A stretch of 64,000 nucleotides of DNA. Source: Octopus sinensis. Lineage: Eukaryota. Under the pieces are notes generated by a model. The model ran no database searches. It saw only the letters and a program-made list of their open reading frames with translations, and was not told the origin of the DNA. Shown one piece after another: positions 20,094 to 59,420 of this stretch (position 1 is the first letter of the stretch; every line of letters begins with the position of its first letter). The stretch spans positions 16,554,001-16,618,000 of the forward strand of contig NC_043009.1 in NCBI RefSeq assembly GCF_006345805.1. Direction: 5' to 3'. Position numbers and translations under genes: made by a program.

Positions 20094-20615
20094 ATATATA
20101 TATATATATTTATATAGCTAGATAGATAGACATATGTAAGCGCATATGTATATACATATAGTTATATATATGTATGTGTATATACAATAAGAGGCTTCCA
20201 AATAAGAAAGCAATGTGCTAGAAAGAGCAGTAGAAATCTCAAAACCACAAGAAAAAGGATAAATTCTCGAAAGGAATGAAAATTAAAAACGTTTACCATC
20301 TCAATAACTGTATATGTGTATATATTCATGCAGATATATATATATATATATTATATATGAGTTAGAGATTCAAGTCAATCAGGTACCTAAATAGTAAAGC
20401 ACCAAGTTCAGGTCAAAGAAATAGCAATCATTACAGACTAGGTTAACTAGGGCAAGTGAATTGTTGTGGCTGAAGCTAGTTACACATAATGTTGCTTCTT
20501 TCATGTAGATTCACCTGAAAATGGTTTTCTTGCATGATGAAATTACTTTATTCATCAATAAAAAAAACTCGTTTGAAACAGCTATAGTCAATGAACCAAT
20601 TTCCATCTGTTATTT

Positions 20616-20897
20616 GTGTGTGTGTGTGTGTGTGTAATACTCGTACACTCTCTCTCTCTCTCTCTCTCTCTCTCTCTCTCTCTCTCTCTCTCTCTCTCTC
20701 TCTCTCTCTCTCTCTCTCTCTCTCTCTCTCACACACACACACACATATGTGTGTATGTATGTATGTATGTATGTATGTATGTATGTATGTATGTATGTAT
20801 GTGTGTATATGTATGTATGTATGTATGTATGTATGTATGTATGTATGTATGTATGTATGTGTGTGTGTGTGTATATGTATGTATGTATGTATGTATG
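20616..20897. repeat. compound microsatellite (TG)n-(TC)n-(AC)n-(GTAT)n
   Basis: Direct inspection. Confidence 0.95.
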
Positions 20898-21054
20898 TTA
20901 TGAAATAACATTCTTGTCTGAACCCCTGTATATATGTTGCGGCTTCTCCACCTACTTCAGTAAAAGTCATTGTTACATCCTTATAAATAATCCATCAGTT
21001 TGAAAGGGATTTCGCTTTTGTGCTTGGTCTGCAAGATTCTTTATGCGAATTCAT

Positions 21055-21271
21055 ATTTTATTATGTCTGGAGAGAGTCATTCTCTTTTAGTGCCTTTATC
21101 ATTTGACACACTCACTGGTTGGATTGCTACTCATTTATTTATTTTTTCTAAAATTTTTGCAACGAAAATTTTAGAAAAAAATAAATAACTAAATGAGTGG
21201 AAATTGAACAGGTGAGTGCGTTAAATAATGAGGCACAAAAAGAGAATGACTCTCCCCAGACACAATGAAAT
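21055..21271. repeat. fold-back (inverted duplication) of a non-coding repeat family
   Basis: tgtctggagagagtcattctcttttagtgcc...ctaaaatttt versus aaaattttag...ggcacaaaaagagaatgactctccccagaca, centred near 21160; same family as 57591-58516. Confidence 0.8.
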
Positions 21272-21723
21272 GGGTTTATATTTCAAGAAGCGTGTTGTGT
21301 AATAAGATACCTGGAGTGAATAAGCTTAACACAAAATGTTTTTATAGGTTGTGAATAAGTAAGGTTGTTGAAATTAACACTTAGTCATCTCCAAATAAGA
21401 AAAGTAAAAATGAATAAATAAATAAATATATATATGTATAGATACATATATACATTTATATATAATATATTAATAAATAAAATAAAACATATGCATATAT
21501 ATAAACATATATGTACGTACCTACCTCTACATGTACATATACACACATATATGAGTACAGGACACCAAAAAGGACGTCGAACACAATGAGAAACGAAAAC
21601 ATAAAAAATAGAATACAGGACAATTAACACAAGGAAAAAACCCTTCTTCAGTCGCTAAAGCTTTCATATATGTATAAATATATACACACACATATATATA
21701 TATATATATATATATATACATAT

Positions 21724-22477
21724 AGACCCAGGAAAACCTGGGACGAGGTGGTGAAGCACGACCTTCGAACTTTAGGTCTCACTGAGGAAATGACTAGAGA
21801 CCGAGACCTCTGGAAGTGTGCTGTGCGCGAGAAGACCCGGCAGGACAAGTGAGTCCATAACCCGTGGCCTTCTACATGGGATGGAGCCAGCCTACGTATG
21901 CATACCTTCCCTTCTTGGGACACAAAACTCTACTTGTGAAGACGTGATGAGGCAAGTGAGGATCAGAATCGAAATCGATCAATGGAAATTGCGGATGTGC
22001 TACCAGTGCCGGTGGCATGTCAAAACTCTGCTTGTGAAGACCCGTTGAGGCAAGTGACGATCAGAATCGAAATCGATCAATGGAAATCGATCAATGGAAA
22101 TCGATCAATGGAAATTGCAGATGTGTTACCAGTGCCGGTGGCATGTAAGAGAACTTTCCGTTTCGCGACCGTTGCCAGCACCGCCCCGTTTCGTGTCCGC
22201 TGCCAGCCTCGCCTGGCCCTCGTGCCGGTGGCACATAAAAAGCACCATCCGTTCGTGGCCGTTTGCCAGCTCTGTCTGGCACCAGTGCGGGTGGCACGTA
22301 AAAAGCACCCACTACACTCACGGAGTGGTTGGCGTTAGGAAGGGCATCCAGCCGTAGAAACACTGCCAGATTTGACTGGGCCTGATGAAGCCTTCTGGCT
22401 TCACAGACCCCAGTAGAACCGTCCAACCCATGCTAGCATGGAAAACGGACGCTAAACGATGATGATGATGATGATGA
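21724..22477 (+). mobile_element. RTE-clade LINE 3' end: ORF2 C-terminus, 3' UTR and (GAT)n tail
   Basis: RPRKTWDEVVKHDLRTLGLTEEMTRDRDLWKCAVREKT then stop; repeat-rich UTR; ends cgctaaacgatgatgat; inserted in (TA)n. Confidence 0.85.
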
Positions 22478-22555
22478 TATACACATACATATATATATAT
22501 GTTTATTTATACACATACACATACATATATATATATGTTTATTTATAATACATTC

Positions 22556-22603
22556 AGGCCTGCTGATGATTACGTAAGTATGAAATCACTGTGATACAGG
22601 CCT
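22556..22603 (+). ncRNA. type I hammerhead ribozyme motif (minimal, dimer-type)
   Basis: AGGCCTG-CTGATGA-T TAC GTAA GTA T-GAAA-TCAC T GTGA-TA-CAGGCCT: perfect 7-bp stem I, intact core, short stem II, palindromic stem III. Confidence 0.75.
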
Positions 22604-56516: not shown

Positions 56517-57060
56517 TGTCTATCAGTGCTAAGAAATGCTTGCTTACATTAAAGGTCACTTCGGGCGAGTAGTGGGATGTGAACCAGATAGTATTCCTAT
56601 CCCTGTGTTTTCTTTTCTTTATTATTGGACTAGTGGCAGTCCAGAATAAGAATAAAGCGAGATACACGCAGGAAAAGTCTTGCCCAACGTATCGAGTAGG
56701 AATAATCCAATAAGATCTCATATGCCTGCTCCATCATATGACCCCATGCTCACATCGAAAGCACCCTCTGCATCGGTAGTCTTGACCCACTCTGCATTCC
56801 TGCTGAAGAGTAAAGTCTTTCTAGCATGGAAGATTATGTCCTTATCCTCTGTACTGATTTCTATGAATTCGCTTGCGAAGGTGAGAGCTTTATCAAGCAG
56901 TTCCTTAGAGAAAGAGGCATAAAAATTGACAATATCGAATTGCGTGAATCTTGCTTTATTCTTATTCTGGACTGCCACCAGTCCAATAATAAAGAAAAGA
57001 AAACACAGGAATAGGAATACTATCTGGTTCACACCCCACTACTCACTCGAAGTGACCTTT
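56515..57060 (-). mobile_element. rearranged Penelope-like RT/linker fragment with 120-bp inverted ends
   Basis: FTQFDIVNFYAS...LLDKALTFA...IIFHARKTLLF...FDVSMGSYDGA (PLE RT) and RNTIWFTPHYS...FLALIDRH (PLE linker); 56551-56670 mirrors 56941-57060. Confidence 0.75.
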
Positions 57061-57590
57061 GGTGTTTGTCATTTGGAGAACCGCTGGCCTACAAATGTAT
57101 TGTATAATATTCTACATATAAAAATATTCTTATATACCCGCCTATGATTTCTGTCACTGGCAATTTTTATGTAAGCAAAAGATTTTTTAAATCCTAACAC
57201 AAAAGACTATTTAAAACCATCAAACGCAGGGCCACCCAAAACTAAATACAGAAATTTTATAGAAAAATCCAAGGCTCAATGAGAAAACCTTAGTGGCCCT
57301 TCTATGGGACATAGTGCACTTATTGTTGACTCCTTATTTAGGCCATTCTACTCTGAAGAGAGAGAAGAATAGGGTTAAGTGAGTGATTAATGTACTTAAT
57401 ATTCTGCTTGAAATGTGGTTAGACACAGTGGAACCTCTATATAAACTCTGCACTCCTTATACTATCACTGCATTGTTCTGTTCACTCCCAAACTGCATAT
57501 TAAACATTGATGCAAGTACTAGTTTAATGTTTCAAGCACTATGATAATTTAAATTAATCAAGATTTTATCAGTATCAAAGAAAAATAATC

Positions 57591-58516
57591 CTGTTGTGTC
57601 TGGGGAGGGTAATTTTCTTTTTGTGCCTTATATTGTAACACACTCACCAATAAAATTTCCACTTTTTTCTTATTTTTATTGTCCTAAAATTCTCATTGTA
57701 TCTTGCAACCTTTTCAACCTTTTCAATAGTTTTGACTCTGTCCCTTATTTACACTGCATTCCCTTTTGTTTGTTTGTTTGTGTGCATATGTATGTATTAT
57801 GTATGCTTGTGTGTGTATGCATATGTGTATATGTATGTATGTGTGTGCATCTGTAAGTATGTATCCTGCATATTTATGTGTTTGCATACATGTATGTATG
57901 TGTGTGGGTGTGAGTGTGTGTGTGTATGCACCCTTTTTTTTCTGTATGTAAGCATATAGATATGTAAATAAACAGATCAACATACAGACGGATAGGTACA
58001 TAGGTTACAAGAACAGACATATATGGAGACACGGATCTACACATATAAAGATGCACATCCATACATACAAACATGGTACATAGTTACATAACACACACAC
58101 ACAAGGAGACAGAAGTGCATACATATACAAACACACGCTCACACACACATATATAGAAAATACACAAACACGGACAGGCAAGCACATAAATATGCAGGAT
58201 ACGTACATATAGATGCACACACATACATACATATGCATACACACATATATACATACATACACATGCAAACACACATATACATACATACATGTATGCATGT
58301 ATAGGCACACACACACACACACACTGACCCACACACATGCGCACAAACAAAAGGGAACGCAGTGTAAATAACGGACAGAGTCAAGACTATTGAAAAGGTT
58401 GCAAGACGCAACAAGAATTTTAGGACAATAAGATTAAGAAATAAGTGGAAATTTTACTGGTGAGTGTGTTAAATAATAAGGCACTAAAAGAGAGTGACTC
58501 TCCCCAGACACAACAG
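57591..58516. repeat. ~300-bp-arm inverted duplication of a non-coding repeat family
   Basis: 57591-~57885 mirrors ~58178-58516 (ctgttgtgtctggggag ... ctccccagacacaacag). Confidence 0.82.
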
Positions 58517-58689
58517 AATATGCTTCAATACACGAACTCATATAAAGGATCTTGCAAACCAAATCCAAAAACGAAAGAAAAATAAATATTATTAAATAAT
58601 GTTTAACCAAATCAAAAAACAAGGGAAAAAAAATTTTTTAATGATTTGACGCATCAGAATTCTAATTAATTATTTATTTCCACATACTT

Positions 58690-58885
58690 GTGCTTGTGCC
58701 ACGTAAAAAGCACTAAGTGCACTCTGCTGAGTGGTTGGTGTTAGGAAGAGCATCCAGCTGTAAAAATCCTGTCAAAACAGTCACAGAAATCTGATGCGGC
58801 CTTCTCCCTGGCCAGCTCCTGTCAAACTGACCCACCCATGCCAGTACGGAAGGCAGACATTAAACGATGATGATGATGATGACGA
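58690..58885 (+). mobile_element. RTE-clade LINE 3' terminus
   Basis: gtggttggtgttaggaagagcatccagctgta...acccatgccagtacggaaggcagacattaaacgatgatg. Confidence 0.75.
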
Positions 58886-58903
58886 CTTAAATGTGGATGT
58901 TCT

Positions 58904-59420
58904 ACGTTATTTACACTTGACAGATATTTGTCCTCATCTTGTTTGTTGTTAACACAACATTTCAGCTGATATACCCTCCAGCCTTCATCAGGTGTACTGG
59001 AGAAATTTCGAACCTAGGTTCTCATTCCTAAGGTATTTTTCGATGTTATTATTATTATTATTATTATTATTATTATTATTATTATTATTATTATTATTAT
59101 TATTATTATTATTATTCAGGTCACCACGGGCATATGGTGTAGTGGTTAAGAGTGCAGGCTACTAACCCCAAGTTTGATTCCAGGTAGTGACCTGAATAAT
59201 AATAATAATAATAATAATAATAACAACAGCAACAACATCGAAAAATACCTTCGGGATGAGAACCCAAGTTTGAAATTTCCCCAATACATCCGATGAAGGC
59301 TGGTGGGGTATATCAGCCGAAATGTTGTTTTAACAACAAACAAGATGAGGACAAATATCCGTCAAATGTAAATAATGTAAATAATATACATAATTCCTCG
59401 TCTCTTAAATATAGAACTGT
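58904..59420 (+). mobile_element. tRNA-headed, hammerhead-containing short retroelement with inverted 5' partial copy and 13-bp TSD
   Basis: TSD ATGTGGATGTTCT at 58891-58903 and 59421-59433; A box 59135-59145, B box 59172-59181; hammerhead motifs at 58952-58995(-) and 59286-59330(+). Confidence 0.78.

Follow-up and report, generated by a model that had tools for sequence, protein, structure and literature searches.

The DNA analysed here (the window) is a 64,000-nucleotide stretch of Octopus sinensis contig NC_043009.1 (assembly GCF_006345805.1, positions 16,554,001 to 16,618,000 of the forward strand; G000:C13:16554001-16618000 in our numbering), set in a 2.72-Gb genome and made up of short interspersed elements (SINEs), microsatellites and relics of long interspersed element (LINE), mariner, gypsy and helitron sequences. 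Among these lie hammerhead ribozyme motifs, inverted duplications (fold-backs) and fragments of Penelope-like element (PLE) proteins, and the relation between the three is the subject of this report. An original prediction, made from the letters alone, had listed eleven hammerhead or hammerhead-like sites, six fold-backs and two PLE fragments, and had proposed non-coding elements that parasitise PLEs and seed the genome with self-cleaving motifs.

Hammerhead motifs in the window and in the genome

A strict descriptor of the type I hammerhead (CUGANGA and GAAA cores, an NUH cleavage site and three helices) finds three sites in the window (22563+, 24153+ and 58991-), against a mean of 0.08 and a maximum of 1 in 60 block-wise dinucleotide shuffles and none in the reversed window. 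When one core mismatch is allowed the window yields 1 site versus 0.18 in shuffled sequence, which is no significant excess (10 of 60 shuffles). Across 100 evenly spaced 10-kb stretches of the genome (1 Mb) the strict descriptor finds 33 sites, compared with 0-4 in eight shuffles (mean 2.6) and 1 in the reversed control, so that the counts clearly exceed those of shuffled sequence at both scales, by 13-fold in the larger sample. Stem III is fully self-complementary in 17 of the 33. Five others belong to one abundant repeat with a wobble-rich stem I and a non-palindromic stem III (L218, L221, L275, L306, L308) and are probably false positives. A net density of ~25 motifs per Mb would correspond to about 40,000-100,000 strict motifs, from many families, in the whole genome, a load for which literature searches found no described counterpart in cephalopods. 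Since the window matches the expectation from the 1-Mb sample (3 motifs versus 2.1; 8 fold-backs versus 6.7), the pattern is a genome-wide property and the window is not special. An Rfam scan of the window returned 58 matches at E<=1 and none to hammerhead models, nor did a copy of family A (below) match them; minimal and long-stem hammerheads are expected to escape these models.

Genome searches were run from eight named sites or arms, and multi-copy hammerhead families cover seven of the eleven predicted sites (22556, 24143, 39376, 51071, 58952, 59286 and the half motifs at 48297). The families are A (58952/59286; 3,223 candidates at about 90% identity), B (22556; 465 candidates, with 100% identity in all 40 scored hits), C (51071; 1,129 candidates), C2 (24143; 1,186), D (39376; 1,993) and G (48101; 2,131), to which H (57591; 3,311) is added from the fold-backs. 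The hammerhead core and helices are kept in the family alignments of B, A, C, C2, G and D. Descriptor excess and family membership together bear out the predicted presence of several independent families; a palindromic stem III is a property of the real families, and the proposed link to microsatellites holds in their TA-repeat targets and fold-back borders. The seeding of the genome is upheld for the spread of the motifs but not for their integrity: most old copies have broken cores, and therefore what is seeded is mostly relics.

Coding and protein-free families behind the motifs

Three of the families are linked to open reading frames (ORFs) for a reverse transcriptase (RT) and a GIY-YIG endonuclease. 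They are labelled Poseidon-type (A) or Neptune-type (D, H) by the absence or presence of the CxxC linker described in PMC8557442. In the window a family A insertion is enclosed by a 13-bp target-site duplication (58891..58903 and 59421..59433, both +). Its left arm (58904..59124, -) is the terminal repeat, ends at the shorter of two end sites and carries a minimal hammerhead (58952-58995). Its right arm (59234..59420, +) reaches the long site and corresponds to the beginning of the PLE ORF, with a minimal hammerhead whose core is broken; the predicted hammerheads at 58952 and 59286 are thus a real family A pair. Between the arms lies a head resembling transfer RNA (tRNA) (59128..59196, +) with an A box at +8 and a B box, likely a promoter for RNA polymerase III (Pol III). 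In the full terminal repeat this head (77 nt) is followed by an (AAT)n linker and then by a body of 185 nt, and the body, which contains the hammerhead, is itself the ORF start. Head or body lies directly behind a Poseidon-type ORF at 29 of 29 loci (picked by ORF end), and the terminal repeat stands ahead of the ORF in 4 of 25 long copies; L328 begins exactly at the head. Family A was considered as a free-standing SINE, a view that was dropped, head and body being the coding element's own terminal repeat. Hammerhead-driven cap-independent translation (PMC13725137) is not argued for A because the cut would lie 3' of the first start codon. In addition, the (AAT)n linker carries two other repeats (L007, L008 and L335; L020 and L022), one SINE-like and one a LINE 3' end, which suggests AAT-targeted insertion.

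At 13 of 19 loci the motif of family D shares its strand with the endonuclease and stands downstream of it, and at 2 more it is inverted; family H lies downstream of a Neptune-type ORF at 4 of 19 loci, and in both the terminal repeat is located at the 3' side of the ORF only. We assign D and H as 3' untranslated regions (UTRs) of protein-coding Neptune-type PLEs. In the window a single D-family insertion (39338-42709) combines an inverted arm of 3' UTR (39338..40254, -), holding the predicted 39376 hammerhead (39376-39420, real and decayed) and interrupted by a SINE at 39990-40160, with a forward arm (40250..42709, +) that encodes the RT thumb, CxxC linker and GIY-YIG domain, is broken by stops, is split by a mariner element (40403-41660) and has lost its 3' UTR. 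Both predicted PLE fragments exist, the one at 41670 being part of this larger insertion and the one at 56515 part of a rearranged ORF relic (56513..57060) that keeps RT motifs and the post-thumb region, has divergent arms of 120 nt and is inserted in a mariner; neither a terminal repeat nor a hammerhead is present in the latter, and Pfam gave no hit for the window's own PLE fragments. Family H forms two fold-backs. One (21009..21265) joins two divergent Neptune-type 3' ends, with the long end in the left arm and the short end (~50 nt less) in the right, and does not include the hammerhead; the other (57588..58576) has a short left and a long right arm and contains a decayed U3-A8 variant of the hammerhead (58385-58425, +). 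The original prediction had named these as fold-backs only and had overlooked this core covariant, which is known from schistosome PLEs (PMC4209133) and retains GAAA in 15 of 20 H arms.

A young Neptune-type family related to D has ORFs of up to 889 aa and a hammerhead core with an A9-to-C change. The 889-aa ORF gives an RVT_1 hit under the cut-off (E 0.003) followed by a GIY-YIG-like motif read by eye. At its loci (L166-L175, e.g. G000:C4570:20500-28500) inverted arms of up to 2 kb are 97% identical and sit in TA targets, and the family is possibly still active. A separate 542-nt fold-back of 100% identity with a zero-gap apex, lying in an open PLE RT frame (L214:1-1084), is either a very recent insertion or an assembly artefact.

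Families B and G have a different organisation, with one hammerhead per tandem unit (479-533 nt over the two families) and no PLE protein at 25 and 20 loci, respectively. B is young, with a ~482-nt unit, and is represented in the window by a 5'-truncated monomer (22536..22880, +) whose 3' end lies within a TA repeat and corresponds to the long site, and whose intact type I hammerhead (22556-22603, +) has a 7-bp stem I and a palindromic stem III. G has a unit of 501-533 nt and a 47-nt stem II. Its window copy is a fold-back of two divergent arms of the ~500-530-nt repeat (47999..48483; long site at 47999, short site at 48483), both of which begin within the hammerhead, leaving at the apex (48297) the half motifs that had been noticed there and that belong to this multi-copy family. 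The 1-Mb sample holds more tandem hammerhead repeats with long stems II and a spacing of 473-497 nt (L231, L291, L278, L166), which are further retrozyme families. On their unit structure B and G are classed as non-LTR (long terminal repeat) retrozymes, a term used here as in PMC7229834 and bioRxiv 10.64898/2026.07.22.740005, and they likely borrow the PLE enzyme. The predicted non-coding elements that parasitise PLEs thus correspond to B (22556) and G (48101), whereas D, H and A are the ends of coding PLEs. Like B and G, the metazoan retrozymes of these two sources are low-GC tandem repeats that carry a single type I hammerhead per unit, have a palindromic stem III, lack an ORF and co-occur with PLEs. 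B and G differ in their 480-530 nt units and in being dispersed as two-armed TA-repeat insertions with PLE ends rather than as long arrays, and G differs in its long stem II; no cephalopod appears in the parts of the sources covered.

Family alignments give stem II lengths of ~85 nt for C and ~56 nt for C2. The predicted 51071 hammerhead is a family C relic (51059..51196, +) with the ~85-nt branched stem II and a stem I that is mismatched in the window copy. Nested double cores considered at this site were dropped, since the inner CTGACGA is due to a mutation private to this copy and is absent from the family. The 24143 prediction corresponds to the strict site at 24153+ in a family C2 copy of approximate extent 24040..24550 (+; hammerhead 24149-24231, 56-nt stem II). 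Covariation in C2 stem III was rejected as a sign of selection, as CpG decay accounts for the pattern. Both families consist of old copies, and their loci gave neither a full unit nor a partner ORF. A broken-core relative of C2 lies at 20511..20610 (+; 75% identical to family copies along ~70 nt). A hairpin of 69 nt (39174..39242) adjoining a TA repeat is the terminal 51 nt of another repeat, family F, one other copy of which has a candidate hammerhead-like core upstream.

The minimal PLE hammerheads of PMC4209133 resemble those described here in that stem I is short, an extra base precedes stem II and stem III is palindromic, and also in the U3-A8 covariant (H), the opposite-strand pairs 100-700 bp apart and the many families per genome. 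The octopus families differ in the length of stem II (47-85 nt in C, C2 and G), in the U17 variant (A and H) and in the A9-to-C core (young Neptune-type family). For cephalopods, the literature searches found a count of 235 hammerheads in the giant squid (PMC6962438) and no account of hammerhead families beyond it; Repbase, Dfam or supplements (e.g. File S1 of PMC8557442) may list such families.

Two-armed insertions and their origin

All six predicted fold-backs (21055, 39178, 48101, 56551, 57591 and 58904) are present, and their extents exceed the symmetric parts. The arms diverge from an apex that varies between copies and end at two family-specific sites. In family A, arms end at body positions 182-185 and 141-157, one arm at each, in 22 of 29 two-armed insertions (two edge-cut loci left out), and 9 of 29 insertions are flanked by an exact duplication of 11-15 bp (13 bp in the window copy). 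Of the 25 distinct ends in family B, 22 map to two sites ~120 nt apart and 23 enter TA repeats, while two-armed insertions use one site per arm in 8 of 10 cases and the same site twice in none. The young Neptune-type family has one arm per end site in 7 of 7 insertions, and the G, A and both H fold-backs of the window follow the same rule; those at 39174 and 56513 lack the two-site pattern. The 1-Mb sample contains 105 fold-backs, of which 14 match a small library of PLE and hammerhead families compared with a mean of 4.5 (range 0-9) in 20 controls, none of which reaches 14, and 45 are flanked by TA repeats against 17 expected. The proposed co-localisation of fold-backs with hammerhead and PLE families is therefore found at the family level (~3-fold) but does not extend to intact motifs, which fall within fold-backs at 4 of 33 versus 1.8 expected, or at 3 of 105 versus 1.3 (not significant).

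Very probably, the hammerheads belong to the terminal repeats of several PLE families and to protein-free tandem repeats, and the fold-backs are back-to-back insertions made by the PLE enzyme. The enzyme would nick both target strands, and reverse transcription would begin at two fixed sites internal to the RNA, such that each arm would be a cDNA primed from one nicked strand and the two 5'-truncated cDNA ends would be joined at the apex. The hammerheads may cleave only as dimers or with help from protein and would be dispensable for insertion, and read-through transcription of two-armed loci could give long hairpins. In the Poseidon-type family A the terminal repeat opens with a tRNA-like head, which is likely a Pol III promoter and the source of the many short SINE-like copies. 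Precedents exist for much of this in the published record: PLEs leave an inverted 5'-truncated copy with a one-sided tail of 30-40 bp (PMC8557442), a purified PLE protein extends both strands from two internal start sites, and cleavage by the PLE hammerhead is protein-assisted and unnecessary for insertion (both PMC11167929), while opposite-strand hammerhead pairs have been described (PMC4209133).

Several observations weigh against this interpretation. Neither B, G, C nor C2 has a PLE coding partner in its family loci, the intact motifs are not significantly enriched in fold-backs as given above, and 26 of the 105 sampled fold-backs are SINE pairs at their background rate (mean 21.6) with ~60 more unclassified. 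In addition, three of the four weaker predicted motifs are unsupported (20511 stands, as the decayed C2 relative): 53250 fails the descriptor, no genome-wide search having been made from it, and searches from 53645 and 57350 returned only the self-match, although lack of a match in such a search does not prove rarity. The single-copy state of the last two sites, the SINE pairs (with one more in the window at 46157) and the five strict hits from the repeat with a wobble-rich stem I are what would be expected if the motifs were chance matches in AT- and microsatellite-rich DNA and the fold-backs unrelated repeats that happen to lie opposed. We regard that reading as barely credible: it is refuted for the main families by the 13-fold excess over shuffles and the paired fixed ends, and neither alignments that keep core and helices nor duplications that enclose both arms agree with it.

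Near-perfect inverted repeats in the arms, the absence of the two-site rule at 39174 and 56513 and the mostly unclassified fold-backs of the sample could also reflect DNA transposons akin to miniature inverted-repeat transposable elements (MITEs), or inverted duplications made by repair, with the hammerhead repeats carried along. Such an origin is highly improbable overall and shown wrong for A, B, D, G and H, where the inequality of the arms has a family-specific length, the apex differs between copies, copies with one arm or in tandem are frequent, and arms run on into RT/GIY-YIG ORFs. Quite improbable as well is the view, implied by the wording of the original prediction, that every family is a non-coding parasite, whether retrozyme or SINE, 58904 being a tRNA SINE with a borrowed PLE tail. 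It fits B and G, and in its favour most A arms start at the head, and A pieces, found in 7 of the 100 sampled stretches, include ORF sequence in 0 of 7; but A head and body flank the coding ORF on both sides, the body is the ORF start, short and long A copies show no diagnostic differences, and D and H are placed as 3' UTRs.

If the PLE-enzyme interpretation is correct, one process accounts for many scattered oddities. The fold-backs are the known inverted-insertion structure of PLEs (PMC8557442), not a separate phenomenon, and the overall pattern is known PLE and retrozyme biology in a new host. The endonuclease-bearing (EN+) PLEs of PMC8557442 and PMC11167929 are like A, D and H in having RT followed by GIY-YIG, a hammerhead terminal repeat, an inverted 5'-truncated copy, a one-sided tail and AT-rich or TA targets, and PAc of Anolis (PMC11167929) is like family A in that the hammerhead overlaps the ORF start. 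The variant features here are the long stems II, the tRNA-headed terminal repeat, and long tails with the one-arm-per-site rule: tails are 50-120 nt in B, G, H and the Neptune-type family versus 30-40 in the described PLEs (PMC8557442), and the near-strict rule contrasts with the PAc start sites, which are without strand difference (PMC11167929). The paired fixed ends would allow the mechanism of PLE integration, which is still debated, to be read from genomic sequence, and the young families (B and the Neptune-type family) are ready substrates for testing it.

The tRNA-like head of family A and RNA editing

The head of family A was compared with the Pol III A- and B-box consensus, and both boxes occur at tRNA spacing at the 5' end of short A copies. 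Among 36 A arms unselected for the ORF, the start falls at -12..+8 relative to the head in 21, within the head in 11 and upstream of it in 4, counts in which paired arms are non-independent. Runs of four thymines (T4) number 0 in the 1,815-nt A ORF consensus, against 2.9 (P 0.04) or 1.7 (P 0.14) expected, and 0, 0, 1 and 2 in the 5' parts of four long A copies, compared with 5 and 4 in two Neptune-type ORFs. We lean slightly towards the head driving Pol III transcription of the short copies; that it drives transcription of the whole element is doubtful. A wider proposal, that a captured tRNA promoter runs a coding PLE such that Pol III makes the whole 2.9-kb element and the short SINE-like ends, and that double priming by the PLE enzyme makes PLE-type insertions a leading source of the long hairpins in cephalopod hyper-editing, is unlikely.

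A number of findings count against a Pol III role. The T4 depletion is weak, Rfam gave no tRNA match for the head, a search of a phage collection gave none, and ARAGORN folds just two A heads, for which it needs a relaxed cut-off where junk is called as well. The head consensus is equal in short and ORF-linked copies, with no subfamily split, and therefore the pile-up of starts could be due to strong stopping of the RT, which a small hairpin at the edge of the head could cause. Schistosome Sm-alpha and Sj-alpha (PMC6765202) likewise join a Pol III-type promoter to a hammerhead, Sm-alpha being the nearest case found, but they are non-coding tandem repeats, whereas the promoter-like head of A sits in the terminal repeat of a coding PLE; the literature searches found no PLE whose terminal repeat opens with a tRNA-like head. 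If driven by Pol III, the tRNA-headed coding element would blur the boundary between SINEs and autonomous retrotransposons.

The RNA level was approached through runs that are only presumed to be RNA, none being on record as such, with contigs that are uninformative on starts, strand and cleavage ends. Family B contigs from two such runs, under another organism label, carry three clustered A>G sites in UA context that do not occur in 68 genomic copies and hardly occur in a DNA-like run; none of these sites was seen in three runs under the label of the best DNA run. The changes give no more than a hint of ADAR editing. Contigs over B also join the unit end to its start, as expected of circular RNA, a junction that tandem DNA gives as well. 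In the presumed-RNA contigs of one label B is represented by a single haplotype, which the DNA-like run contains rarely or not at all (L046:1400-1990), as if one master copy dominated expression. Possible editing of PLE fold-backs by ADAR, as suggested in the original prediction, has precedent by analogy: Penelope is the sole heavily edited LINE class in a lizard, where PLE copies are the main source of double-stranded RNA (dsRNA) for ADAR as is proposed here, and octopus is an extreme hyper-editor with many long dsRNA-forming loci, for which repeat classes were not analysed in that study (PMC5625713). The two-armed insertions would be a testable source of this extreme hyper-editing and, if transcribed, would offer a genome-wide supply of dsRNA.

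Two further fold-backs in the window had not been listed. The one at 46157-47081 consists of two oppositely oriented SINE copies, and the other (33681-34861) has divergent 367-nt arms of 70% identity derived not from a PLE but from a LINE ORF relic, which we take to be RTE-like. Broken gypsy-like, LINE and helitron relics occupy 14895-17992, 27267-29880 and 44025-44597, the helitron being recognised by a Pif1 helicase hit.

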